From Haloferax volcanii DS2 (GTDB lineage Archaea; Halobacteriota; Halobacteria; Halobacteriales; Haloferacaceae): a DNA stretch of 32,000 nucleotides. Within the stretch, counting starts at the first letter, position 1. Every line of letters starts with the position of its first letter. A program made the position numbers and the translations under genes. Below are positions 3,433-26,754 of the stretch, piece by piece. The DNA is taken from positions 1 through 32,000 of the forward strand of contig NC_013966.1 in NCBI RefSeq assembly GCF_000025685.1, in the 5' to 3' direction. Under the pieces are notes generated by a model. That model ran no database searches and was not told the origin of the DNA. It worked only from the letters and a program-made list of their open reading frames with translations.

Positions 3433-3804
3433 TACAAATTGTACACAGTCTACACTGTGTCTGCTGTTTGGGCGGTGCAAACTCCGTTTGAACTGCGGAC
3501 TGTGCGGACATCTGGAGGTTCGAACGGACGTTCCGCGGCATGCCACATAATTTTATCCACGACTTTTGAACCGTTGGGACTTCGTCTACATTCCGCACTC
3601 TTTATGATTTTTACAATTTCTACAAATTGTAAACGTTCGGCCATCGACGGCCGGTGACTCGCCTCCGTTCCGGCCTGAGAAGTCTCTACTTCGCTCACCG
3701 TGTCCGATTCTCGGACATCGCTCGCATTCTTTGCTGTTCTCACAGCGTACGAATCTCACGCGGTACAAACTGTCTGAAGATTCTACAATTTCCACAATTT
3801 GTAG
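3433..3804. repeat. TACAAATTGTA palindrome family in the parA upstream region (candidate operator or centromere sites)
   Basis: tacaaattgta occurs at 3433-3443, overlapping the TATA-like region of parA, and at 3621-3631. The reverse form acaatttgta is at 3794-3803. The copies at 3621 and 3794 are each preceded by tacaatttc (3612-3620 and 3784-3792), giving two related units of about 20 bp. Confidence 0.55.
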
Positions 3805-3875
3805 ACTGTATGTGAATTCTAAAACTCGGGAGCGGTGCGGACTTCGCGAGCGGTGCGAACCGCGTGGACGGTTTC

Positions 3876-3956
3876 GACTGCCTTCGCTGTTCGCACCGTT
3901 TGAACTGCTCTGACTGTCGAGACCGCTTTGACTGTTTAGACTGCCCCGACTGTCCG
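3876..3956 (+). repeat. Nine tandem degenerate 9-bp units (GACTGNNNN)
   Basis: The units read gactgcctt cgctgttcg caccgtttg aactgctct gactgtcga gaccgcttt gactgttta gactgcccc gactgtccg. A further in-phase gactgttcg lies at 4002. Confidence 0.6.
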
Positions 3957-4083
3957 CGCTCTCCTCACGGTTTCCACCGCGCTCGAAGTCCGCCCGGTTT
4001 CGACTGTTCGAACGTCGCCTCCGACGTTGCACGGGTCACTATCTTCACCAGAAATCGATTACTCAGCGGCGCTATCGAGAGAA

Positions 4084-4103
4084 TACTGCGGACATGGTGG
4101 TGT
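4084..4103 (+). repeat. Isolated ORB-like repeat
   Basis: tactgcggacatggtggtgt matches the reverse copy at 1585-1605 (tactgcggacagagtggtgtt). A weaker relative, tgcggacatctggaggtt, lies at 3503-3520. Confidence 0.45.
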
Positions 4104-4124
4104 CCACCGGCCGCCGCACCCGGC

Positions 4125-4241
4125 TCAGTTGGCGAGTTTGTCGGCGAACTTCTCGCGGACTTTCTCGACTTTCGGGCTCGCGTGGAACTGGCAGTACGCG
4201 TCGTTGGGGTTTTTCTCGAAGAAGATAGACGTGACCTGCAA
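4125..4241 (-). pseudogene. msrA: 3'-terminal remnant of peptide-methionine sulfoxide reductase MsrA
   Basis: The minus-strand translation is ..FFEKNPNDAYCQFHASPKVEKVREKFADKLAN*. It matches the conserved MsrA C-terminus (..EKNPN.YC..). No upstream MsrA catalytic region is present, and similarity is lost near 4225-4243. Confidence 0.6.
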
Positions 4242-4282
4242 AAATACTATAGAGCTAAGTGGGTGGTGTCCGCACGGGGAGT

Positions 4283-5641
4283 ATGGCCCGGAAGTACGAC
4301 CAGCAGTACGAGGACGCCCGAGAACGGATTCGGAACCACAGTACCGAGGGGACGCATCAGGTGCGGAAGGGAGTAGAGCGGACCCACCCCGGCTACGAGG
4401 ACGCGGAGGACGCGGAGCGCATCCTCACGATGGCTGACGCCTACGACGCGGACAACCTCGTAGTGGACTGCCCGGAGGGTCAGTCTACGAAGTCCGTCAC
4501 GACCCTCAAGAACTACCTCACCGGCCTCAACAAGATAGCCCCGCACGTCGCCCTCACGGATACGACCGCGACGGAACTGAACACGGTGATGCAGGGCTTC
4601 CTCGACGGGGACCTCCACAACGTGAAGGACTCCGGCCTCTCGAAAGGCTCCATCCGCGTCTACCAGAACGCCCTCCGGCAGTTCTACTACGTCCACGACG
4701 ACGTGGGCGTGGACCCGGAGGACATCACCCTGTTCAAGACGGACGACAAGGCCGTAGACCCGGCGGATATGCTGACCCGCGAGGAGATTCAGGCCATCCG
4801 GGACGCCGCGGACTGTATGCGGGACCGCGCCCTCTTCGACTTCCTCATCTACACGGGCCAGCGGAACACGGCCACGCGCTCCCTCCGCATCAAGGACCTC
4901 GACCTGGAGAACGACCGCTTCCGGCTCAACACGGACGCGGACGGCCTGAAGGGAGCGGAGACGAACGGGAAGTGGCGGGACCTCCTACTCTCGTCCGCGA
5001 CCGTCAAGCAGTACCTCAACACGGAACACCCGGCTCCGGACGACCCGGAGGCGTACGTGTTCACGTCCCGTCCGAAGTACGGCGGCCCCAAGCCCCGAGA
5101 GATGCTGGACGTAACGACGCTGGGCGGCATCGTGGGCCGTCTCGCGGACCGGGCGGCGGAGGACTACCCGGCCATCGCCAGCAAGCCGACGTACCCCCAC
5201 GCCCTCCGACACAACTTCGTGACCATCGCCCTCCGCCGCGGGATGGACGAGACGGCCATCAAGCACCAAATCGGCCACGCGCCGAACAGTTCCGTGATGG
5301 AGTCCACCTACGCCCACCTGAAGGACTCCGACCACATCCGGGCCGCTCGGGACGCCTTCGACCTGGAGACGGAGGACCACGAGAGCGAACTGACGCCGGA
5401 GGTGTGCCCGCGGTGCGGGGAGAGTCCGCCGGAGGACGCCCGCCTCTGCCCGTACTGTGGACTCGCCTTCACGCCGGACGCGGAGCAGGCCGTCGAGGAC
5501 GCGGAGGAAGCAGTCAACGACTCCTACCGGCAGACGCCTCCGGAGGACGCCGAGACGAAGGAGAAGATAGACCTCGTGTACGACCTGCTGGACGACCCGG
5601 ACGTGAAGGCGGCGATAGCCGAGCAGAAGGCCGAGGAGTAG
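4283..5641 (+). CDS. Tyrosine recombinase / phage-type integrase with a C-terminal zinc ribbon
   Basis: The catalytic region reads ...TGQRNTATRSLRIKDL ... HALRHNFVTIALRRG ... IGHAPNSSVMESTYAHL, giving the R..HxxR..H..Y pattern. The C-terminal extension contains CPRCG..x11..CPYCG. ATG 4283 follows a TATA-like aaaatactataga at 4241-4253. Confidence 0.9.
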   Translation: MARKYDQQYEDARERIRNHSTEGTHQVRKGVERTHPGYEDAEDAERILTMADAYDADNLVVDCPEGQSTKSVTTLKNYLTGLNKIAPHVALTDTTATELNTVMQGFLDGDLHNVKDSGLSKGSIRVYQNALRQFYYVHDDVGVDPEDITLFKTDDKAVDPADMLTREEIQAIRDAADCMRDRALFDFLIYTGQRNTATRSLRIKDLDLENDRFRLNTDADGLKGAETNGKWRDLLLSSATVKQYLNTEHPAPDDPEAYVFTSRPKYGGPKPREMLDVTTLGGIVGRLADRAAEDYPAIASKPTYPHALRHNFVTIALRRGMDETAIKHQIGHAPNSSVMESTYAHLKDSDHIRAARDAFDLETEDHESELTPEVCPRCGESPPEDARLCPYCGLAFTPDAEQAVEDAEEAVNDSYRQTPPEDAETKEKIDLVYDLLDDPDVKAAIAEQKAEE

Positions 5642-5823
5642 CGCCGCTGGCGGCGGAGGACGACCGGGCCGGCGGGACGCCGCCAACTCGGGGAGAATAC
5701 CGACGACGGTGAAAATATACTGGTTCATTCTCGGCACGCTCACGGAAAGCGTCCTACGTCTGGGCCAAGAACCTCTACAAATCGTCAAAGCATTTTTTAC
5801 CCCACTCTCGGTGGAATTGCATA

Positions 5824-6483
5824 ATGCCTGACGTTCAGCGATACCTCCAGTCGCTCACCGAAACCGCGAGCACAGGGGACACACGCGAAGAAAGCTACTA
5901 CGGCGACCTCAGCGAACTTCTTGAACAACACGCCGAAGAAAACGGGCATAATGACGTCCAAGTCACCACACTTCCTTCCCCAACGGACGGCGGGAACCCG
6001 GACTTCAGAGTGTGGAGCGGAACAAATGAAGTCACAGGGTATGTCGAAGCGAAGCTACCGAGTGGTCCCTCCCTCGACACTATCGAAGAGACAGAGCAAC
6101 TTACAAGATATCGGGACACGTTCGAGAATGTTATCTTGACGAATTTCGTCGAGTTCCGCCTCTACCGGAACGGCGAACAAGTCGCCGAAGCCGAGATAGC
6201 AGACCCACCCGAAATTCCTCGATTCGGAGACGCACCCGACGCCATCAATACTGACGACCTCGATAGCCTACTGGAGCGGTTCTTCTCGTTCTCCCGGCCA
6301 GAAATAGAGACGGCTCGAGAGCTTGCGACCGAACTCGCCAAACGAACGTCATTTATGAGAGAGGTAGTCCTGCAGGAACTCGGCCGAGAGATGGCCGGGA
6401 ACGACGGGCACATTCTCGGATTCTATGAAGCGTTCGAAGACTATCTGATGCCCGATATTAGCCGGCGAGAGCATCCGTTCTAG
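5824..6483 (+). pseudogene. N-terminal fragment of a type IIG-like restriction endonuclease/N6-adenine methyltransferase, truncated by IS insertion
   Basis: It has a PD-(D/E)xK-like motif, GNPDFRVW...GYVEAK, followed by TNFVEFRLY. No methyltransferase domain follows. The reading frame runs into the IS4 left end at 6472 and stops at 6483. Confidence 0.55.
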
Positions 6484-7916
6484 TTTAACGAAGAATCCAG
6501 TTGCTGTCTGTTGATTTGATATCGTCGCAACTACCTGATTGAGAAACCCGGTGGGAAGTATGACCTACAGCCCACCGGATTCGGTCATAGTTGACCGGAT
6601 TCAAAGAGCGTTTCCCTCTGATGAGTTGCGCGAGCGCGCTCGCGCAACGAATCTCGTCCAACGAGAGCGGAAATTCGACATCGTTGCGCTGTTCTACACA
6701 CTCTCGTTTGGCTTCGCTGCTGGCTCAGACCGCTCTCTCCAAGCATTTCTCGAACGCTACGTCGAGATGGCTGACTGTGACGAACTCTCCTACGCATCGT
6801 TCCACGACTGGTTCGAACCAGGATTCGTTGCACTCCTTCGAGAGATTCTCGATGACGCAATCGAGAATCTCGATACCGGACGAGAAGATTTGAACGGCCG
6901 TCTCGAACGCTTTCGAGACGTCCTCATTGCTGACGCAACCATCGTTTCGCTGTACCAGGACGCCGCTGATATCTACACAGCAACCGGCGACCATCAAGCC
7001 GAACTGAAACTTCACCTCACCGAATCTCTCTCGACTGGGCTCCCGACACGATTCCGGACAACCGATGGGACGACTCATGAACGGAGTCAGCTACCCACCG
7101 GCGAGTGGGTAGCTGACGCCCTCATCTTGCTCGATTTAGGCTTCTACGACTTCTGGTTGTTCGACCGAATCGACCAGAACGGCGGGTGGTTCGTCTCCCG
7201 GGTGAAGGACAACGCGAACTTCGAGATCGTCGAAGAACTGCGAACGTGGCGAGGCAACAGCATTCCGCTGGAAGGAGAGTCGCTGCAGGCCGTCCTTGAG
7301 GACCTGCAGCGACAGGAAATCGACGTACGCATCACGCTTTCATTCGAGCGCAAACGAGGGTCGGGCGCCAGCGCGACCCGGTCGTTCCGATTGGTCGGCC
7401 TGCGTAACAAGGAGAGCGAAGAGTACCATCTGTATCTGACGAATCTGGCGAGAGAAAGCTACAGCGCGCCCGATATCGCGCAGCTCTATCGGGCGCGCTG
7501 GGAGGTCGAACTGCTGTTCAAGGAGTTGAAGTCGCGGTTCGGCTTGGACGAGATCAAGACGACCGACGGCTACATCATCGAGGCGCTGATCATCATGGCC
7601 GCAATTTCGTTGATGATGAGTCGTGTAATCGTGGATGAGTTACGGTCGCTCGAGGCAAGACAGCGAGAGGGCGAAGCCGCCGCAGACGCCGACTCGTCGG
7701 CGTCGCGGCTCCCTCGGCGTCGCTGTTCGCTCGCCGTGGAACGCCACGGTCATCTAATCCAGTTGTATCTCATGATCGAGTTGGGCTACGAACTGCCGGA
7801 TTTGGACGAGCTGTTGCTGTGGGCGTCGCGTAATCCAAATCCACACAGGCAACGGTTACGTGAGCAGGTTGAACGAGGTGAGTTCGGCTTTGATCGCTAC
7901 TAAACTAGAACGCATG
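6472..7916 (+). mobile_element. IS4-family (ISH8-like) insertion sequence, about 1445 bp
   Basis: The terminal inverted repeats are catccgttctagttta (6472-6487) and taaactagaacgcatg (7901-7916), matching at 15 of 16 positions. The right repeat overlaps the transposase stop. No target-site duplication is visible. Confidence 0.65.
6560..7903 (+). CDS. IS4-family DDE transposase
   Basis: The DDE context reads LIADATIV, LLDLGFYD and the Y(2)R(3)E(6)K signature YRARWEVELLFKELK. ATG 6560 (MTYSPPD) is preferred over TTG 6539. Confidence 0.9.
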   Translation: MTYSPPDSVIVDRIQRAFPSDELRERARATNLVQRERKFDIVALFYTLSFGFAAGSDRSLQAFLERYVEMADCDELSYASFHDWFEPGFVALLREILDDAIENLDTGREDLNGRLERFRDVLIADATIVSLYQDAADIYTATGDHQAELKLHLTESLSTGLPTRFRTTDGTTHERSQLPTGEWVADALILLDLGFYDFWLFDRIDQNGGWFVSRVKDNANFEIVEELRTWRGNSIPLEGESLQAVLEDLQRQEIDVRITLSFERKRGSGASATRSFRLVGLRNKESEEYHLYLTNLARESYSAPDIAQLYRARWEVELLFKELKSRFGLDEIKTTDGYIIEALIIMAAISLMMSRVIVDELRSLEARQREGEAAADADSSASRLPRRRCSLAVERHGHLIQLYLMIELGYELPDLDELLLWASRNPNPHRQRLREQVERGEFGFDRY

Positions 7917-8114: not shown

Positions 8115-9450
8115 TTTTATAAAGAACTAATCTGATATGTGAAATACGAATGGAGGACGTGATTCGCACCGTCAAGGTCAAACTCGACGTACCCAACGAG
8201 CGGTGCGACGACCTCCATCAGACAAAAAATCAGTTCCTCCACTGTGCGAACACTACTGCAGAGTGGGCGTGGAGACACCCGGACGACTACTGCGTGACCT
8301 CGAAACAGAAAGCCGAGAAAGCCCTCTACGAGCAACTCCGCAACGAGACAGAGTTGACTGCAAACCTCGTTCAGAAAGGGATTCGGCGTGCTATCGAGGC
8401 CACGAAAAGCGGTGTCGCCCGACTCAAGAAAGGCGACAACACGAGCCAACCGCACTTCGACGCGTGGAGCGTCGTCTACGACAAGCGTTCAGCGACGTTC
8501 CACCGCGACCACGTTTCGCTCTCGACGGTGAACGGTCGCGTCAAGTGTGACTACGTGATTCCCGACAGCTCCGAGGGAACGCCGATTGGCGAGTACCTGT
8601 TGAATGAGGATTACGAGTTCCGAATGTCCACGTTGCAATACGACCGCGCCACAGAGTCGTTCTACCTCCACGCACGGATGCGCCGAACCACAGACGAACA
8701 AGAGCTGTCGATGACTCATTCTGACGCCAAGCACAGAACAGTCCTTGGTGTTGACCTGAACGTGGACGGCTCGCTCGCCGTGACGTCCACAGGCGCGTTC
8801 ATCGGGAACGCCGACGAGATGAATCATCGACGCCGAGAGTTCGAGAAGACGCGTGGGTCGATGCAACAAACTGGAACGCGGTCGGCACACCTGTCGATTC
8901 AGTCGATGAAAAACCGCGGACACCGCTGGATGCAGGACGAACTACACCGAGCGTCTAACCAGATTCTCGAAGAAGCCCGCGACCACGACTGTACTCATAT
9001 CTCATTCGAGAATTTGACCGACATTCGTAAGCGGATGGCTGGCACCAAGCGGTTCCACGCATGGGCGTTCCGACGCCTGTACCAGTACACCGAATACAAA
9101 GCCGAAATGTTCGGAATCGGGGTTGAACAGATAAGTCCTGCATACACGAGTCAGCGGTGTTCCAAGTGTGGATTTACGCATGAGGACAATCGGCGGTCGA
9201 AGCACCAGTTCGTGTGTCAGAAGTGTGAGTACGAACTGAACGCGGAGTATAACGCGAGCAAAAACATCGCTCGCAAACTCTTGAAACGTCTCCACTCGGG
9301 GCAGAAGTCTTCGAGTGGAGGCGCACCCTGTCAGTGTGCGCTACCGTCAGGGACGCTGAACCTGAACGGCGATTTCTGCGCCTCCGTCGATTCGACGGCA
9401 GAAGGGGAGTCCACTGACAAGCCCACGACTTCAGTCGTGGGTAACTGACA
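8115..9450 (+). mobile_element. IS200/IS605-family (IS1341-type, tnpA-less) element; boundaries approximate
   Basis: It has a TATA-like ttttataaag at 8115-8124, tnpB, and a terminal hairpin cccacgac-ttca-gtcgtggg at 9422-9441. Confidence 0.6.
8150..9448 (+). CDS. tnpB: TnpB-family RNA-guided endonuclease (IS605 OrfB)
   Basis: RuvC-I is VLGVDLNVDG and RuvC-II is ISFENLTDIR. The zinc finger is CSKCG...CQKCE. RuvC-III reads LNAEYNASKNIA, with Glu where Asp is usual. Confidence 0.9.
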   Translation: MEDVIRTVKVKLDVPNERCDDLHQTKNQFLHCANTTAEWAWRHPDDYCVTSKQKAEKALYEQLRNETELTANLVQKGIRRAIEATKSGVARLKKGDNTSQPHFDAWSVVYDKRSATFHRDHVSLSTVNGRVKCDYVIPDSSEGTPIGEYLLNEDYEFRMSTLQYDRATESFYLHARMRRTTDEQELSMTHSDAKHRTVLGVDLNVDGSLAVTSTGAFIGNADEMNHRRREFEKTRGSMQQTGTRSAHLSIQSMKNRGHRWMQDELHRASNQILEEARDHDCTHISFENLTDIRKRMAGTKRFHAWAFRRLYQYTEYKAEMFGIGVEQISPAYTSQRCSKCGFTHEDNRRSKHQFVCQKCEYELNAEYNASKNIARKLLKRLHSGQKSSSGGAPCQCALPSGTLNLNGDFCASVDSTAEGESTDKPTTSVVGN

Positions 9451-9687
9451 CACCCGATCTGCGTCGACTGCGCGATCCAGTCGAATCCCGATCCCGACGA
9501 GCGTGACCATTACGCCTGCGATAGCTGTGGTCTCGTTGTCGATGCGCTTGCAGCCCTCACACAGTTCCGTGTCGAACTCGGCCACCTGGAAGGTCCACTA
9601 CAGCTGTGTGCGAGATGTAGTCCCGATGGGCCCGCGACGTACTGGACTCGCGACCTAGACGACCATCTAATTAGTGAGTCGTCGTAG
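9451..9687 (+). pseudogene. Start-less Cys-rich ORF fragment abutting the tnpB right end
   Basis: The frame is open from 9445 with no ATG or GTG. It translates as HPICVDCAIQSNPDPDERDHYACDSCGLVVDAL...LQLCARCSPDGPATYWTRDLDDHLISESS*. CxxC pairs suggest a zinc ribbon. Confidence 0.35.
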
Positions 9688-9707
9688 TCGGTCGGAAAGT
9701 GGTGTAG

Positions 9708-9722
9708 ACCGCTCTGTTGAAA
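9708..9722 (+). repeat. Left copy of the 15-bp direct repeat GACCGCTCTGTTGAA
   Basis: It is identical to 14641-14655. The flanking ggt is also shared. Confidence 0.5.
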
Positions 9723-9937
9723 TCCTCAGCGCGGATAGTTTGTTGGGCCGTGCTGAACACATCGCGCGAATACAGCATCTGGGTCGATACCGTCTAAGGT
9801 GTGGGCTCGTCCTGAGTACGAGCTAGGTGCCGAAGGTTTTCTTCCAAGTAGGCTAGCACCATGAGAAGACATTACAGTGTGAATGCTAAGCACCCTCATT
9901 ACAGTTTTATTACAATTGCGGCATGATATCATACTGT

Positions 9938-10657
9938 ATGGCATCAGATCCATTTGGTCGCGCAGTCCGTGATTATTACCTTGGCGAGCTAGAGGAACCA
10001 CTTATCGACCGCGATGGTGATGAAACTCGCGAGCATTCTATCGAAGAATGGTATTTTGGAGAATACCAACGTGACGAGTGGTTTGAATCGTGGTTAGAGG
10101 GGCCGCTTCTAGATATGGGCGCTGGCGCAGGGCGTGATACTCTCTATTTTCAAGAACAGTTTGAGACAATCGCCATTGAGGTCAGTGAACACCTCGTAGA
10201 GACTATGCAAGACAGAGGCGTTGATGATGCCCGTCTTGCAGACATGTTTTCACTTCGAGAACATTTCGGACGTAACCGGTTTCAGTCAGCGTTTGCACTT
10301 GGGACACAGGCACAGCTCGCAGGGTCGATGCACGGTCTTAGACAGTTTCTTGATGACCTTGCATTTGTTACTACCGAAGATGCGACCGTTATACTTCATG
10401 GATATGCTCCTGAATTGGAAGTTACAAAGGACATTTTCGCCTACCGGGAGGATCCCACACCGGGGTTAGCATATCGGATTTTTCACTGTGAGTACGACGG
10501 TGAAATCGGGAGAACATTGCTCTTCCAGCTATTCAGCATAGACCGTCTTAGAGAGGCGACGGTAGGAACGTCGTGGGAAGTTTCCGAAGCCAGTTACGGC
10601 CATCCCGAGTCGGAGGGTGAATCAAATACCTGGTTGGCTGTACTCACGAAGGCTTAG
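9938..10657 (+). CDS. Class I SAM-dependent methyltransferase
   Basis: Motif I is LLDMGAGAGRD, and an acidic post-I residue is present (AIEVS). The region is AT-rich. TATA-like agttttatta at 9903-9912 favours ATG 9938 over ATG 9923. Confidence 0.65.
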   Translation: MASDPFGRAVRDYYLGELEEPLIDRDGDETREHSIEEWYFGEYQRDEWFESWLEGPLLDMGAGAGRDTLYFQEQFETIAIEVSEHLVETMQDRGVDDARLADMFSLREHFGRNRFQSAFALGTQAQLAGSMHGLRQFLDDLAFVTTEDATVILHGYAPELEVTKDIFAYREDPTPGLAYRIFHCEYDGEIGRTLLFQLFSIDRLREATVGTSWEVSEASYGHPESEGESNTWLAVLTKA

Positions 10658-20840: not shown

Positions 20841-21737
20841 ATGTCAAGTAACAACGCAACCAGTAATGTAGTTTCGGTCGATGAACAGGCATTCGAAAAG
20901 GCGGACGAAGCGGCGGTCGACGAAGACGGCTTCGAGGTCGTTGATGAGACGCCGGAGTTCCGGGCGACGGTGCAGATGGAGGTGCAGGCGAAGGTCGATG
21001 CGAACCACCCGGACGGGATGGTCGACACCAGTGACGAGCGGATCTACGGTGCGACCCTCGAACAGGAAGAGCGCATTCGGGCGCGAGAGGCTGAGCTGGA
21101 GCGTATCAGTGCCCAGGCAGAGCTGGGGACGCAGGAAGGTCGGGAGAAGCGGACGCGAGAGATTGCGGCGAAGCGGAGCGCTGAGCGGCGTGCAGAGTTC
21201 CAGAAGCGGGCGGCGAGCGTGAACCCGATGGCTGACCTGGAGCGAGGCGATCCCCGTGCAGAACTCACGCAGGAGCAGTTGGCGGCGGTGAACAAGCAGT
21301 CGATGCGGCTGGCGGAGAAGCTGGATGGCTGGTCGCGAGCGGCGATTGGTCGGCGGCTGGGTGAGGCCGTCGTCGGTGGGAAAGACCTGATGAGCGCGGT
21401 CGTCGGCGTGTTCGAGGAGTTGCAGACGGCACCCGGGACGGTGGTTCCCATCGGGAAGCTCGAGGACGTCAATCGCAAAGAAGTGAGCATCGAGGGTCGT
21501 GTGACGCAGCTTTGGGAGCCGTCGAGTTCAGCCATTTCCCAAGTGGGGCTCATCGAAGACGACAGTGGGAAGACGAAATTCACCAGTTGGGTTGCGAGTG
21601 ACCAACCGTGGATCGAGGAGGGCGAGCGCGTTCGCATTCACGGAGCGGCGAAGAACTGGTACAATGGGCGCGTCTCGGTAGCTCTGACCGGCTGGAGCAC
21701 CGTGCATTTCCCTGAGCGCGGTCGGTGGTGGGAGTAG
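20841..21737 (+). CDS. OB-fold nucleic-acid-binding protein (RPA-like C-terminal domain)
   Basis: The C-terminus reads VSIEGRVTQLWEPSSSAISQVGLIEDDSGKTKFTSW...RVRIHGAAKNWYNGRVSVALTGWSTV, a typical OB barrel pattern. The start is ATG 20841 or 20829. The longer track ORF from 20496 translates GC-rich repeats. Confidence 0.7.
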   Translation: MSSNNATSNVVSVDEQAFEKADEAAVDEDGFEVVDETPEFRATVQMEVQAKVDANHPDGMVDTSDERIYGATLEQEERIRAREAELERISAQAELGTQEGREKRTREIAAKRSAERRAEFQKRAASVNPMADLERGDPRAELTQEQLAAVNKQSMRLAEKLDGWSRAAIGRRLGEAVVGGKDLMSAVVGVFEELQTAPGTVVPIGKLEDVNRKEVSIEGRVTQLWEPSSSAISQVGLIEDDSGKTKFTSWVASDQPWIEEGERVRIHGAAKNWYNGRVSVALTGWSTVHFPERGRWWE

Positions 21738-21751
21738 CCGTCGTCGCACCC

Positions 21752-21760
21752 TTCTTTTTT
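21752..21760 (+). terminator. T-run terminator candidate after the OB-fold gene
   Basis: ttctttttt lies 15 nt after the stop. Confidence 0.4.
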
Positions 21761-21972
21761 GCTACGTGCCAGACCGACCCAGGCCCCACCGCCCCACCCT
21801 CCGCTCCGTGCTCGCTTCGCTGCGCGCGCAGCCACGACCTTGCGAACTATTAACACAGACAAGTTACTGCCCATTGATAAATTGGTGTCACAGATTTGAA
21901 TATACCTCTCGTGTCGATCACTTTCGCCCCGCTTGCGAACCATTTTTGCCGGATTAACGGGAATCGTGAGAT

Positions 21973-22293
21973 ATGAGCGAGAATTCAGATTCCGGGAACG
22001 ACTCCGGAAGCGATTCCTCCAGCAGTGACGGCCGGAAACTGTCCGGTAAAAAGGCCGAGGCCCTCTCCGCACGGAAGTCCGACACCAACACGAGAGCGAA
22101 CGCCGCCGAAAAAGCAACAACGGACAGCGGGACGAAGGTCGAGAAAAGCGGGAGCAAGCAGCCGTCGTCCGAAGCAGCTCCGAGCGCTGAGGGCGAGAGC
22201 ATCCCACGTAGCGTCCGCGGCTCGGGAGACTCCGGTGGGTCCAGCGAATCAGGGAACGGTGGTGACAGCTCCGGGTCGGGTGGCTCGGAGTAA
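21973..22293 (+). CDS. Ser/Gly/Asp-rich, probably disordered, hypothetical protein
   Basis: The 106-aa product is low-complexity. TATA-like catttttgcc lies about 27 nt upstream of the ATG. It sits 12 nt upstream of the next gene. Confidence 0.45.
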   Translation: MSENSDSGNDSGSDSSSSDGRKLSGKKAEALSARKSDTNTRANAAEKATTDSGTKVEKSGSKQPSSEAAPSAEGESIPRSVRGSGDSGGSSESGNGGDSSGSGGSE

Positions 22294-22305
22294 CCCCGGT
22301 CCAGC

Positions 22306-23010
22306 ATGGCTACAGTTCCCGGCGACATCCTCTTCTACGTCGTCTTGGTAGCGCCCGGGTTCATCGCAGTGATGACCGCGGTCAGCCTCGCAGCGGTCGA
22401 GGACGAGATATCCCAGTTCGTCCTGCTCATCTGGAGCCTGGTATCTAGCATCATCATCGACGGCTTGTTCCTCGCCGGGTACCAGCTGGTCTACAACCCG
22501 ATCGGATCGTACGAGGAACTGCGGACGTTCCTGTTCGACCCGTTCTTCCGGGTAGACCTGATCGCGCTCATCTTCCTCCTGTCGGGTGTCATCGGCGTTG
22601 CGTATGCGGTCGGCATCCTCGTCGACCTTCCCGGCCGGCTCCGCCGGACGTTGCAGGCGAAGGCGCATATCACGTACAATCCGCGTCAGCCGTGGGAGAA
22701 CTTCATGAAGGGTTCCGGGTCGATCCGTATCAAGACGAGTGACGACGAGCTGTACGCGGGCAACGTGGTCGAGTGGAGCAGGGCGGGGAAGCCGAAGGAG
22801 GTCCGGGTGAAGCACCCATACCGGTACAGCCTTGAGGAGGAGGAATACGAGTGGGTGGGCGGTGAATCAATGCTGTTCCTCGAAGATGATATCGACCGCA
22901 TCCTGCTGCGGAAAGGCGATGGAAGAGAGTCGTTCTGGGCGCGGGTCCGTTCTCGGTTGAGTCGTGATTCGTCCGCCGCCGAGGAGAATGAAGGCGAGGA
23001 CGATGACTAA
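22306..23010 (+). CDS. Membrane protein with a C-terminal soluble beta-rich domain (possibly DUF6338-like)
   Basis: It has three N-terminal TM helices, then PWENFMKGSGSIRIKTSDDELYAGNVVEWS...VRVKHPYRY. The family assignment is from memory only. Confidence 0.6.
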   Translation: MATVPGDILFYVVLVAPGFIAVMTAVSLAAVEDEISQFVLLIWSLVSSIIIDGLFLAGYQLVYNPIGSYEELRTFLFDPFFRVDLIALIFLLSGVIGVAYAVGILVDLPGRLRRTLQAKAHITYNPRQPWENFMKGSGSIRIKTSDDELYAGNVVEWSRAGKPKEVRVKHPYRYSLEEEEYEWVGGESMLFLEDDIDRILLRKGDGRESFWARVRSRLSRDSSAAEENEGEDDD

Positions 23011-23098
23011 TCTGCTCCTTGGTTAGTAGGGTTATCCGCACCGGTTCGCCATCAAATCAACGGGCCGAAGACTCAACCACCGAATCCGTCGGGCCAAG

Positions 23099-23500
23099 CT
23101 AGTCCGATTCGGCCTCGTCCCCCGCGTCGCGCTTCGCATCATCCACCATCCGATCCAGCCCGCTCTTCTCGGCCTCCTCCTCGAGGATCTGCTTCGCCCG
23201 GTCCAGGCCGACGTCCTGCACCAGATCGTCGATCGCCGCCAATCGGGCCTCGCGTTCCTTGTTTCGGGCGACTTCGCCCATCTCCCGGACGCCCTCGCAG
23301 ACGCGTTCGATGGTCTCCTCGTCCGGGCTCACGGTCGGTGCGGACTGGCCGAACTGGCCGTTGTCCCGGAAGTAGCAGACTCGAACCTCGTACCGATCCG
23401 TGTCTTCAATCCTGACAGCCTGTACCTCGGCGCGGCCCTCTTCGTCGCCCCACCGGTCCACAACAACGCGCTCAATCACTTCGTAGTTCGCCATGTGCAA
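23099..23500 (-). CDS. Hypothetical acidic protein
   Basis: The ORF is 133 aa. TATA-like gttttatgat lies about 27 nt upstream. It is co-directional with the HEPN-like gene. Confidence 0.55.
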   Translation of the reverse strand: MHMANYEVIERVVVDRWGDEEGRAEVQAVRIEDTDRYEVRVCYFRDNGQFGQSAPTVSPDEETIERVCEGVREMGEVARNKEREARLAAIDDLVQDVGLDRAKQILEEEAEKSGLDRMVDDAKRDAGDEAESD

Positions 23501-23616
23501 TTTTCACTAAATACCACTACTATCATAAAACTACCGATGAGCCGGGTTTCGGAGATAGAGGCGATATAGCCACTAATTTCGTGGAGATTGTGGTATGGGG
23601 CCGCCACCACCGGAGA

Positions 23617-24615
23617 TCAGCCGTGCTGCTCGGTCAGGTCCTCGACGTGATCGAACAAGCGTTCCTGTTTCTCCCGGAATTCGTCGTTCAACACAACCTG
23701 GTAACTGGCGTCCACCGTGACGACATCAGAGGTCGGTCGCGTCTCAGGCCCCCAGTCTGGGCGGAGATCCTCACCGTACACAAACTCGGGGTACGCAGGT
23801 TCTCCCTGGTTCTCGATCTGCCGCTTCAACCCCTGCAGCAGGTGGTTCTGTACGACCGCCGTATTGCGGCTGATGGTGAGATACGCTTCGCGGGGCCGGT
23901 CACCCATCAGGAGGACGTGCGGCTCGAAATCGTCGTCTTGCCACTTGGCCGTGGCGAGGTAGTCGTCGCACCAGTCCGGTAGGTCGACCGGTTCGGCCTG
24001 TTCGTCGATGAGGACCTGGTCGCTGTTCATCAGGATGAAGAATCCGTGTGTGATCTTGTTCCGCGCCGTCCGGAGCACGTCCCACGCCTGTTTGGCGACG
24101 AGGTAGAAGTCGCGGTACGCCTGGAGATTCCCCAGCATATGCGCGCGGTACCAGGGTTCGTCCGCTTCCGCAATGTCCAGGTCGTCGAAGTCGGGATAGG
24201 CGAAGATGGAGGCGAACCGGTCCAGGTCGGTGCTGTCGTCGATCGTGTCGAAGAAGTCGTGGATCTCGTAGTTCCGGTAGGTGAGGAGCTGCTTCGCCCG
24301 GTCCTCTGGCGGGTCGTCAGGATTCATGCTGACCGCGGCCAGCGCCTCGATGATAGACACCGTTTCCTGGATGATCTCGGCGTTCAGTGCACGGATTATG
24401 TTCTGCCCCTGTGCGGGCGTGAGGGGTTCGTCGAAGTCGATGGACCCGTTTCGGATCTCGTCGATGGTCCGCGATGCGTTGCGGATGAGGAAGCTGCGGT
24501 AGTTCAGGACTTGCTGGGCCGAGGAGAGGATGGAGTGGGAGACGACGCGGTCAGGCGTGAAGTAATCCGGATGGTGGTCAAGATCGTCGGAGTTGTGCGG
24601 GTCGATAGGGGCCAT
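23617..24615 (-). CDS. Hypothetical protein with an Rx4H (HEPN-like) motif
   Basis: WDVLRTARNKITHGFFIL contains the R-N-x3-H motif that is canonical for HEPN RNases. The region is predicted helical. ATG 24615 (MAPIDPHN) is preferred over GTG 24627. Confidence 0.6.
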   Translation of the reverse strand: MAPIDPHNSDDLDHHPDYFTPDRVVSHSILSSAQQVLNYRSFLIRNASRTIDEIRNGSIDFDEPLTPAQGQNIIRALNAEIIQETVSIIEALAAVSMNPDDPPEDRAKQLLTYRNYEIHDFFDTIDDSTDLDRFASIFAYPDFDDLDIAEADEPWYRAHMLGNLQAYRDFYLVAKQAWDVLRTARNKITHGFFILMNSDQVLIDEQAEPVDLPDWCDDYLATAKWQDDDFEPHVLLMGDRPREAYLTISRNTAVVQNHLLQGLKRQIENQGEPAYPEFVYGEDLRPDWGPETRPTSDVVTVDASYQVVLNDEFREKQERLFDHVEDLTEQHG

Positions 24616-24691
24616 ACCTCGGCCCACTCAGTGTAACCCGGTTATTCTTTCTCACATCACTCCTTCTATTCAGAGAATCTGGTTCCGTCCG

Positions 24692-24859
24692 TTAGAGGTC
24701 GCGGGGCTGTACGGTCTTCCGGTCATTCGCCTCGGTACGTCGAGCAGCGTCCTCAAGCAGTTCTTCGACCTCGGCGTCCAGCGCTTCGTAGAAGTCGGCC
24801 GAAACGTTACTGCCTTCGAGCGCGTCCTTCACGGCGGATTTTACTATCAGGTCCGTCAT
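24692..24859 (-). CDS. DUF1931 / histone-fold-like small protein (55 aa), absent from the ORF track
   Basis: It reads MTDLIVKSAVKDALEGSNVSADFYEALDAEVEELLEDAARRTEANDRKTVQPRDL*. This pattern is typical of the archaeal DUF1931/NFYB-like family. Confidence 0.7.
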   Translation of the reverse strand: MTDLIVKSAVKDALEGSNVSADFYEALDAEVEELLEDAARRTEANDRKTVQPRDL

Positions 24860-25022
24860 ATCGCCCGGTTGCTCACCGGTCGGGGTAAAATGATTTGCTA
24901 AAAACGGCGTGACGACGTCTCCTCGCAGCGTGTGGCAGGGGTTCGCGAGTGCTATCGTTTAACAGGCAAGACATAAACCGGACAGTCGGCAATCCGAGTG
25001 TAAGTGGTGTTCATCATGGCAC

Positions 25023-25706
25023 GTGACGAAGTTCAGCCTCGAAATCGTTGCTGACGACGACAAGGTCAAGATCAATCTCCCGGGCGACCGAACGTTCGGT
25101 ATCACGTCGACGTCCAGCGGGGCAGCGTTCATCCCCGACTGGAACGACCGCCACTTCACTTGGGCCGCCGACAAGGACACCGGTGCCCCGTTCCACCACA
25201 TCACCGACGAGACGCGGGATGAGCAGATTGCGAAGGTCGAGTACGGTTCCGAGGACGAGTACCTCTTCGAGATGTACAGCGCGTACGGTGCATTCGGCCA
25301 GTTGAAGCCCGCGAACTGGGTGAACGCCGACTACCTCTGGGAACTCGATACCGACGCCTATGCCGACGTCCTCGAGGAAGCGGGTGTTATGGAACGAAGT
25401 GAAGACCGGCTGTGGTTCAGCTTCACCCGCCTCATAACGTACATAGAACAGCTAGTCCAGGACAAGGACAAGTTGGTTGAGTTCCTCAACCGAGTCTACA
25501 ACGGGGTCGGCCGCCGAGAGGCGTGGGAGAGCGATTCCCGTCTCTTCTTCACCCCTGGATTCGAGAGCCTCATCCTGCAGCGGCCTGACGGGTATGTTAT
25601 GGAGCTGTCCATGGCGGACCCGGTCAATGTGTTCGATCGAATGCGGAGTGCCCGATCCATCGACGTGATGTGCCAGCTATTCGACGAGCCGGCGTTCTCG
25701 ACATAG
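25023..25706 (+). CDS. Hypothetical protein
   Basis: The 227-aa ORF has a GTG start and an acidic composition. I recognise no motif. Confidence 0.55.
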   Translation: MTKFSLEIVADDDKVKINLPGDRTFGITSTSSGAAFIPDWNDRHFTWAADKDTGAPFHHITDETRDEQIAKVEYGSEDEYLFEMYSAYGAFGQLKPANWVNADYLWELDTDAYADVLEEAGVMERSEDRLWFSFTRLITYIEQLVQDKDKLVEFLNRVYNGVGRREAWESDSRLFFTPGFESLILQRPDGYVMELSMADPVNVFDRMRSARSIDVMCQLFDEPAFST

Positions 25707-25827
25707 CTCACATACTTTTCCGTTATTGTTCAAGTAGAGGTAGCTTTCGTACTGGTAGCGTCTATTTCCCCCTAAATGGGTGAGGGGCTCGCCGAGATGG
25801 CGAGTTCCACGTAACCTGGTGAGACAC

Positions 25828-26754
25828 ATGGCAATTAGAGATATCTACCAAACTGGCTTCGACGAAGACGTCCGAACGGAGTCGAGCGCGAACCAATGTC
25901 CCGAGTGCAACGGACGGGTCACCACGAACGCGGTCGAAACGGTCTGCGAGGACTGTGGCTTGGTCATCGACGAACAGCGTATCGATCACGGGCCGGAGTG
26001 GCGGGCGTACGACAAGGAGGAGTGTGAACGAACGGGCGCCCCGCTCACTGCAGCTCGCCACGATCGAGGCTTGTCAACGGAGATCGGGCGTGGCACCGAC
26101 GCGAAGGGGAACGAACTCTCCGGGAAAAAGCGGCGGCGACTCGCTCGGATGCGTCGTGAACAGACTCGGGGTCGCTGGCGGTCGAAAGCAGAACGGAATC
26201 TCGCACACGGATTGGGCGAAGTGCGTCGGTTGGCGAGTGCCCTCGAACTCTCCAATTCGGTCCGTGATCAGGCGTGTCAGCTCTTCCGGAGCGCCCAGAA
26301 CGAAGATCTGCTTCGAGGCAGATCCATCGAGGCCATCGCCGCGGCCAGCGTGTACGGGGCCTGCCGGTGCAACGGCCTCTCGCGGTTGGTGGATGACGTT
26401 AGCGAGGTGGCCCGCGTCGCGGAGTCACGAGTCACGAACGCGTACAAAACGCTGAACGAAGCGCTAGGGCTCCCGGCCGAGCCCGTCCTCCCCAGCATGT
26501 TCGTGCCGCGACTCGCCTCGGACCTCGAGTGTCCGGACGAGATCCGACAGCGGGCCCGAACCCTCGCGGAGCAGGCCGAGGAGCGCGGCGTCACGACCGG
26601 CGTCCATCCGGCTGGGTTTGCAGCGGCCTGCCTCTACAAGGCCGGTCGCGAGGAGGGGCGATGGCTGACGCAACGTGACGTTGCCGAGTCCGGGGACGTC
26701 ACGCCAACCACGGTTCGGACGCATCACGAGACGCTCAATGAGCTCGCTGTCTAG
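25828..26754 (+). CDS. tfb: Transcription initiation factor IIB (TFB) paralog
   Basis: It has the N-terminal zinc ribbon CPECNGRV..VCEDCG, the B-finger/linker HGPEWRAY, and two cyclin-like repeats. ATG 25828 (MAIRDIYQ) is preferred. Confidence 0.92.
   Translation: MAIRDIYQTGFDEDVRTESSANQCPECNGRVTTNAVETVCEDCGLVIDEQRIDHGPEWRAYDKEECERTGAPLTAARHDRGLSTEIGRGTDAKGNELSGKKRRRLARMRREQTRGRWRSKAERNLAHGLGEVRRLASALELSNSVRDQACQLFRSAQNEDLLRGRSIEAIAAASVYGACRCNGLSRLVDDVSEVARVAESRVTNAYKTLNEALGLPAEPVLPSMFVPRLASDLECPDEIRQRARTLAEQAEERGVTTGVHPAGFAAACLYKAGREEGRWLTQRDVAESGDVTPTTVRTHHETLNELAV

Follow-up and report, generated by a model that had tools for sequence, protein, structure and literature searches.

Does the 332-amino-acid protein encoded on the reverse strand at positions 23617-24615 of the Haloferax volcanii DS2 DNA analysed here belong to the HEPN ribonucleases, and does it work together with the genes beside it? 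The DNA in question comprises positions 1 to 32,000 of contig NC_013966.1, referred to below as the window, and we take it to be positions 1-32000 of the megaplasmid pHV4. An annotation made from the letters alone, the sequence-only reading, had found in this open reading frame (ORF) the motif LRTARNKITHGF, had likened it to HEPN active sites, and had proposed a three-gene toxin or abortive-infection module. The ORF (stop codon 23617-23619) and the motif are present where they had been placed, with the motif occupying residues 181-192, R185 being encoded by nucleotides 24063-24061 and H190 by nucleotides 24048-24046. The reading that we favor, with a probability of roughly 0.45, is that the protein is a stand-alone HEPN-like ribonuclease (RNase) used in mobile-element or virus conflicts and that it represents a new family. 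We infer that the protein folds as a HEPN domain, has RNase chemistry, and serves in defense; a latent, stand-alone HEPN-type RNase appears to be the likeliest mechanism because the population signature of a conflict gene coincides with the motif and with the predicted topology. An alternative GTG codon lies at 24627, four codons upstream of the ATG at 24615. The ATG start and the length of 332 residues are common to eight homologues, and we adopted this start because all full-length homologues begin with MAP and have 332 residues.

Conservation of the motif was assessed in an alignment of 17 homologues that are 28-89% identical to the window protein. Twenty columns are invariant, including R185, T189, H190, G191, and F192, so that the conservation check called for by the sequence-only reading gave a clear outcome: R185 and H190 are kept in 17 of 17 sequences, down to 28% identity. 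Position 186 is occupied by N in 13 sequences, by H in two, by D in two, and by nothing else, giving a family consensus of R-[N/H/D]-x-x-T-H-G-F. Residues 178-194 (W-D-V-L-R-T-A-R185-N-K-I-T-H190-G-F-F-I, encoded at 24034-24084), which form the candidate catalytic block at the COOH-terminal end of predicted helix-3, are the best-conserved segment and are 86% identical between the two allele classes of the gene, A and B. The second-best-conserved stretch consists of predicted helix-2 (residues 67-96, encoded at 24328-24417, with invariant E84, E90, A94, and S96) and the following P103-x2-R106...Y113, and nucleotide identity peaks at 82-87% at 24394-24275. The loop at residues 56-66, helix-4, and the COOH-terminal linker show only 30-50% identity between classes. 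A second R-N-x-E-I-H sequence is present at residues 115-120 (window 24256-24273). It is not conserved, with R in 10 of the 17 sequences and H in nine, and it draws weak Pfam matches to HepT-like and HEPN_Cthe2314 profiles, making it a trap for motif-based annotation.

To relate the motif to a fold, we compared a structure model with the published description of the HEPN superfamily. The model considered here is the second of two obtained with AlphaFold, based on an alignment of 16 sequences (predicted local distance difference test score, pLDDT, of 73.1; predicted template modeling score, pTM, of 0.76). It shows helices at residues 21-55 and 67-96 (the latter containing the invariant E84 and E90), three short helices within residues 103-137, a 40-residue helix at 150-189 that ends at the motif, beta strands within residues 201-237, a helix at 239-268, a disordered linker at 275-304, and a terminal helix at 311-331. 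The pLDDT values are 74-92 for the four long helices (21-55, 67-96, 150-189, and 239-268) and for the helical insert at 97-149, and they fall below 50 at residues 189-194. HEPN domains are characterized by a conserved Rx4-6H motif in which the residue after R is mostly N, D, or H (PMC3710099); R185-x4-H190 is invariant in the family, and position 186 holds only these three residues. The HEPN motif lies at the end of a long helix, ahead of a flexible loop, and a helical insert is found between helices 2 and 3 (PMC3710099). The predicted helix 150-189 places the motif of our protein correspondingly, at the level of secondary structure. In many HEPN families, helix-2 also contributes a conserved acidic residue near the motif, usually as part of Ex3[KR] (PMC3710099), and in Csx1 a beta-hairpin comes straight after the motif (PMC3710099). 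At the secondary-structure level, the layout of the model fits the HEPN description element for element.

The population genetics of the gene provided a separate line of evidence. In the close clade, represented by loci L042, L044, L045, and L046, the block consisting of a 227-residue protein, a 55-residue protein, the 332-residue protein, a 131-residue DUF8109 protein, a DUF6338 protein, and a Ser/Gly-rich protein is syntenic, with the 55-to-332 order recurring in L044, L045, and L046 and the 332-to-131 order in L042. Amino acid identity to the window copy is 89-93% for the 55-residue protein (L044, L045, L046), 85% for the 227-residue protein, 86% for the DUF8109 protein, 95% for the DUF6338 protein, and 85% for the Ser/Gly protein, compared with 58-61% for the 332-residue protein. 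The drop in nucleotide identity, from approximately 0.85-0.93 to 0.5-0.75, coincides exactly with the intergenic region upstream of the 332-residue gene. Nei-Gojobori estimates of synonymous divergence (dS), nonsynonymous divergence (dN), and their ratio (omega) were 0.30-0.93, 0.03-0.09, and 0.06-0.14, respectively, for the flanking genes; 1.0-1.25, approximately 0.30, and 0.23-0.31 for the 332-residue gene between class A and class B; and 0.57-1.16, 0.06-0.13, and 0.10-0.16 for the same gene within a class. Given its omega values of 0.1-0.3, the 332-residue gene is real and under purifying selection, and given a dS of 1.0-1.25 versus 0.30-0.93, its alleles diverged earlier than the surrounding backbone did.

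The boundaries of the exchanged segment were apparent from a copy that is 89% identical to the window protein and resides on a different backbone (L005). This locus aligns with window positions 23623-24733 by blastn at 85% identity and shares with the window only the 332-residue gene and 118 nucleotides upstream, ending in a 13-codon stump of the 55-residue gene. The same stump precedes the 332-residue gene in L043, whereas the 55-residue gene is absent from L042 and L047, without even a stump, and from all distant loci. Downstream, similarity stops at the stop codon of the 332-residue gene in all loci. Another downstream flank is common to L005 (class A) and L047 (class B), with 78-88% nucleotide identity, their 332-residue genes being 71% identical. 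A maximum-likelihood tree pairs, across backbones, the window copy with L005 (support 100/98) and L044 with L047 (100/98); each allele class is found on two backbones, and the tree of the gene does not follow the flanks. The 332-residue gene and its promoter region form an exchangeable single-gene cassette that is swapped between backbones, and that in the window spans 23620-24733 on the reverse strand (the gene, 76 intergenic nucleotides, and the last 13 codons of the 55-residue gene).

A promoter-like core of the 332-residue gene is located at 24625-24653 on the reverse strand (GAGAAAGAATAAC...CTGAGTG), with an A/T-rich box centered approximately 29 nucleotides before the ATG. The core is conserved in seven of seven close-clade loci, L042 and L047 among them; these two lack the 55-residue gene, and in them the core reads GAGAAAGAATA.C...CTG.G at about the same distance of 29 nucleotides. 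Its sequence and position suggest that the box may be the gene's own promoter, and its spacing would imply a leaderless or nearly leaderless mRNA.

The family is tiny (some 20 clusters), sparse, patchy, and restricted to haloarchaea. Among 5.8 billion clustered proteins, 10 relatives were recovered by a single-sequence search and 17 by a profile search, and an exhaustive phmmer search of 1.84 billion representatives yielded nine true clusters. A 526-residue repeat protein (P0019) was discarded as a spurious, low-complexity artifact. The named members all come from haloarchaea (Halosimplex, Halococcus, and Natronococcus). The gene is single-copy in its own genome and is present in one of 394 other sampled Halobacteria genomes and in none of 20 genomes of the same genus. 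A phylum-wide profile search returned only chance-level fragments, plasmid and phage collections contained no match to the protein, and literature searches by locus tag and by HEPN found no mention of the gene or family. Two other 332-residue ORFs in the window were considered as paralogs and rejected: they are IS110 transposases, and their equal length is coincidental.

Wherever it occurs, the gene is found in mobile-element contexts. The homologues that are at most 48% identical are all solo genes, and their surroundings include D5 primases, integrases, resolvases, methylases, a TraG-like protein, and VapBC; no type of partner recurs beside the gene across 12 contexts, and no MNT nucleotidyltransferase is adjacent here or at any homologue locus. 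Conservation of the gene neighborhood, which the sequence-only reading had wanted examined, is not seen beyond the close clade, where the synteny reflects a single backbone. We regard the 332-residue gene as having a conflict-gene signature because it is rare, confined to mobile DNA, and exchanged between backbones, with variable surfaces around a frozen R-N-x3-H block.

Two of the carriers are described here in their own right. On a Halococcus contig (L048, 2533-5793), the homologue directly follows a gene for a 1086-residue protein with a weak TraG/TraD-like match and a DUF8128 gene, an arrangement that suggests a conjugative or integrative element. In L005, an 18-kb metagenomic contig, the 332-residue gene lies 2.7 kb from a gene for a short prokaryotic Argonaute (pAgo) of 436 residues (PADLOC pAgo, E=5e-67); next to the pAgo gene are an N6-methylase fragment, a gene for an nSTAND/Cdc6-like ATPase, and three unknown genes, and these features, at 3635-7235 and 9334-10146 of the contig, make up a haloarchaeal defense island.

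Several observations weigh against a HEPN RNase. The pattern R[NDH]xxxH occurs in 12.6% of the ORFs of at least 250 residues in this genome, and the weight of the motif therefore derives only from its family-wide invariance. Pfam, NCBIfam, PADLOC, and PHROGs contained nothing at curated thresholds for the 332-residue protein, and HMM profiles built from the whole protein or from residues 62-200 matched no PDB sequence. Foldseek with both models placed no HEPN protein among the top matches (best E=0.81 for PDB and 0.23 for BFVD), its weak PDB neighbors being generic bundles of the syntaxin, 14-3-3, and talin type. Three weak Pfam HEPN matches were found among family members, only one of which (HEPN_MAE_28990, E=0.16) covers the real motif; we rejected this enrichment as fold evidence, given that the other two fall on the nonconserved RNxEIH at 115-120 and are pattern noise. 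E84 and E90 are invariant in predicted helix-2, yet neither has K or R at +4, so that an Ex3[KR] context is lacking, and a simple antiparallel register would put both far from R185. The helices are also much longer than those of canonical HEPN domains, and a recognized defense system is present in only one of approximately 10 contexts (L005). The HEPN-like character proposed by the sequence-only reading is therefore upheld with regard to the invariance and predicted position of the motif, whereas the fold itself gained no backing from Foldseek, the HMM searches, or hhalign.

The hhalign comparisons call for separate comment. Alignment to haloarchaeal HepT (21 sequences) and DUF4145 (six sequences) was negative, and the HepT-DUF4145 positive control failed as well; the test had no power because two bona fide HEPN families did not detect each other. 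Alignment to HEPN_MAE_28990 gave 14 columns (DVLRTARNKITHGF versus DKDLIERRNYVVHGL) and was not significant. No comparators for Abi_2 and HEPN_MAE_28990 were found in Halobacteria, and only three in the phylum sample; PF07751 (Abi_2) was not found in 80 sampled Halobacteria genomes and had no match in the 332-residue family.

The most serious competitor, to which we accord a substantial chance although well short of even odds, is that the protein is a novel long-helical-bundle accessory protein of haloarchaeal mobile elements, unrelated to HEPN, that acts as a regulator, adaptor, partition factor, or exclusion factor and whose R...H block binds a ligand, nucleic acid, or partner, or stabilizes the fold, without RNA cleavage. 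The failure of fold and profile searches to match HEPN or anything else, and the generic helical bundles that are its best weak structural neighbors, are as this explanation would have it. R185 lies on a conserved hydrophobic stripe, sharing an i/i+3/i+4 face with Y156, M160, N163, Y167, F170, W178, and L181, and could thus play a buried, structural part; E84, E90, S96, P103, R106, and Y113 make up another conserved cluster, situated away from the motif; and no partner that would control toxicity is present. Against it, the most conserved element of the family is an exact HEPN signature, complete with the N/D/H alternation and a Gly after the His, and its predicted location fits the HEPN description. 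HEPN families are, moreover, mutually undetectable by sequence, as the failed positive control shows. A different catalytic interpretation, in which R106, R185, H190, and Y245 would form a tyrosine-recombinase site, was rejected given that their order and spacing are unlike R...HxxR...Y and that the fold appears to be all-alpha.

It is improbable that the protein has a HEPN fold but lacks catalytic activity, acting as a sensor or scaffold that binds nucleotides or RNA, much as do the substrate-binding HEPN domains found in fusion with nucleotidyltransferases. Such a role would be compatible with the motif and the HEPN-like topology, as well as with the fact that several genomes tolerate the gene alone, with no antitoxin, but HEPN domains that have lost catalysis typically lose the Rx4-6H motif (PMC3710099), which is invariant here. 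Least probable, and largely refuted, is a three-gene toxin-antitoxin or abortive-infection operon in which the acidic product of the downstream gene (131 or 133 residues) would neutralize a HEPN toxin: the three genes are co-oriented and their pairwise orders recur in the close clade, but the loci in question have a single backbone in common, with genes 85-95% identical versus approximately 60% for the 332-residue gene, L045 has an unrelated gene in the DUF8109 position, L005 and L043 keep an intact 332-residue gene beside a mere stump of the 55-residue gene, the homologues of 48% identity or less stand alone among unrelated neighbors, DUF8109 occurs alone in Halobellus and in the virus HHPV3, the genes are separated by gaps of 76 and 122 nucleotides with an AT-rich, promoter-like element for each, and acidity is the haloarchaeal norm.

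If the 332-residue protein is indeed a HEPN-like RNase, it would constitute a highly divergent, enlarged HEPN-type domain acting as a metal-independent endoribonuclease. In the architecture proposed from the AlphaFold model, helix-1 (21-55) and helix-2 (67-96) would be followed by a helical insert (97-149), helix-3 (150-189) ending in R185-N-K-I-T-H190, a beta-rich insert (195-237), helix-4 (239-268), which would begin with G238, P241-R/H242, and Y245, and a variable COOH-terminal tail (274-332). By analogy with characterized HEPN RNases, H190 would activate the ribose 2'-OH, and R185 and N186 would hold the scissile phosphate, with the active site probably completed across a homodimer. The gene travels alone, together with its promoter region, as a passenger of integrated elements and plasmids, and its product might remain latent until triggered, resulting in abortive infection or in the exclusion of competing elements. 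The fast-evolving loop at 56-66, helix-4, and the COOH-terminal tail are candidate sensing or specificity surfaces. A bolder version of this proposal, which we consider unlikely though worth stating, is that the family is a previously unrecognized, archaea-specific Rx4H branch whose architecture would be new in its very long helices, the beta insert behind the motif, and a variable COOH-terminal sensor, that the gene is a self-promoted, freely exchangeable single-gene cassette for immunity or exclusion in haloarchaeal plasmids and proviruses, and that its two ancient allele classes are kept in one slot by balancing or diversifying selection.

The neighboring genes remain to be described. The upstream gene, at 24692-24859 on the reverse strand, encodes the 55-residue protein that had been called DUF1931- or histone-fold-like; the ORF is sound, and the histone-fold assignment amounts to sub-threshold Pfam matches (CBFD_NFYB_HMF, E=0.006; Histone, 0.007; DUF1931, 0.02). 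Its distribution indicates that it is a backbone neighbor rather than a consistent partner of the 332-residue gene. The downstream acidic ORF spans 23099-23500 on the reverse strand and had been read as 133 residues; its acidity and frame hold, and its likeliest start is the ATG at 23494, which gives 131 residues (23099-23494) and which has its own TTTTATGA box 28 nucleotides upstream. The product belongs to DUF8109 (PF26414; phrog_26198, E=5e-26). The suggestion that it neutralizes the 332-residue protein draws no support from its acidity: every protein of the block except a transcription factor B (TFB) paralog has an isoelectric point of 4.3-4.7, and the 332-residue protein itself has a net charge of -38, so that the acidity of the 131-residue protein is uninformative. 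Nor is there support for the supposed module of the two flanking genes with the 332-residue gene, both being part of the backbone and absent beside all distant homologues.

DUF8109 has a history of its own. A homologue with 42% identity is 'putative protein 10' of the betapleolipovirus HHPV3, others are found in Haloarcula virus Harhisp1 and, on its own, in a Halobellus captivus chromosome, and the copies outside the window include those at L049 4828-5193 and L050 6001-6342. These occurrences point to a backbone or virus-linked accessory gene and not to a partner of the 332-residue gene. An origin of the block as a pleolipovirus provirus was considered and rejected, DUF8109 being the only gene common to the window and HHPV3. 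The slot downstream of the 332-residue gene varies within one backbone: DUF8109 occupies it in the window and in L042, and in L045 (1559-2035) it is replaced by a gene for an unrelated 158-residue protein with no family match.

On the opposite strand, the membrane protein and Ser/Gly protein listed by the sequence-only reading were confirmed as a DUF6338 protein (E=3e-11) and a 106-residue Ser/Gly-rich protein. Transcribed divergently from the 55-residue gene is a gene for a 227-residue protein (25023-25706, forward strand) that has no Pfam, NCBIfam, PADLOC, or PHROGs match. Given that its counterpart in L044 is 84.5% identical (dS 0.56, dN 0.08), we regard it as a genuine, conserved gene of the backbone and an orphan. 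Insertion sequences are abundant in the region (two copies of IS110, a pair of TnpB genes, and a DDE transposase), and the window also encodes the TFB paralog and a DUF7342 winged helix-turn-helix protein. An Rfam search of 21500-26000 found nothing.

Systems for antiviral defense and for conflict between elements have been charted far less well in archaea than in bacteria, and inventories of haloarchaeal defense rest on bacterial models, which miss the 332-residue gene completely. Its presence in Haloferax volcanii, the best archaeal genetic model, in which gene deletion, inducible expression, point mutation, and viral challenge are standard practice, makes the prediction directly testable there. 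A conserved backbone that holds an exchangeable, deeply diverged gene may also be a useful signature for other unannotated haloarchaeal conflict genes. If the protein is HEPN, it adds a new and architecturally unusual family to a well-known superfamily; if not, it is the founder of a new fold family whose candidate active site is clear.

Comparison with known systems places the protein closest to the HEPN superfamily as a whole. Features held in common with the superfamily as defined in 2013 by Anantharaman, Makarova, Burroughs, Koonin, and Aravind (PMC3710099) are the invariant Rx4H with N, D, or H after the Arg, the predicted placement of the motif where a long helix gives way to a flexible loop, and ties to mobile elements and conflict loci. 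An all-alpha core of four long helices with an insert between helices 2 and 3, and acidic residues in helix-2, both predicted from the model, would be further points of agreement. The 332-residue protein differs in showing no significant profile or structural match, in its helices of 30-40 residues, in an extra variable tail of 60 residues, in acidic residues outside an Ex3[KR] context, and in a beta-rich insert of approximately 45 residues between the motif and helix-4, for which Csx1 is the only comparable case among HEPN proteins. HEPN_MAE_28990 (PF18737) shares RNxxxHG[FL] after an amphipathic helix, with hmmscan giving E=0.16 on residues 175-194 of the family member P0004. This match covers the motif only and is not significant, and PF18737 members, none of which were found in Halobacteria, have 220-300 residues with helix-4 straight after the motif. 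Stand-alone HEPN Abi proteins include AbiD/AbiF of the Abi_2 family, AbiJ, and AbiU2. Like the 332-residue gene, they are single genes for proteins of approximately 300-350 residues, on plasmids or prophages, with no dedicated antitoxin and with Rx4H in the middle or COOH-terminal half; the haloarchaeal protein, known here from its gene alone, differs in having an archaeal host and no sequence match to them (Abi_2 and PADLOC models negative). HepT of the HepT-MntA type VII toxin-antitoxin system, unlike our protein, is a minimal HEPN domain of 110-160 residues that is always paired with an MNT nucleotidyltransferase. The two nonetheless share R[N/D]xxxH, which in haloarchaeal HepT reads RNVLAH or RDKLIH and so shows the same N/D alternation, as well as an aromatic residue two positions past the His, Y in HepT and F192 in the 332-residue protein.

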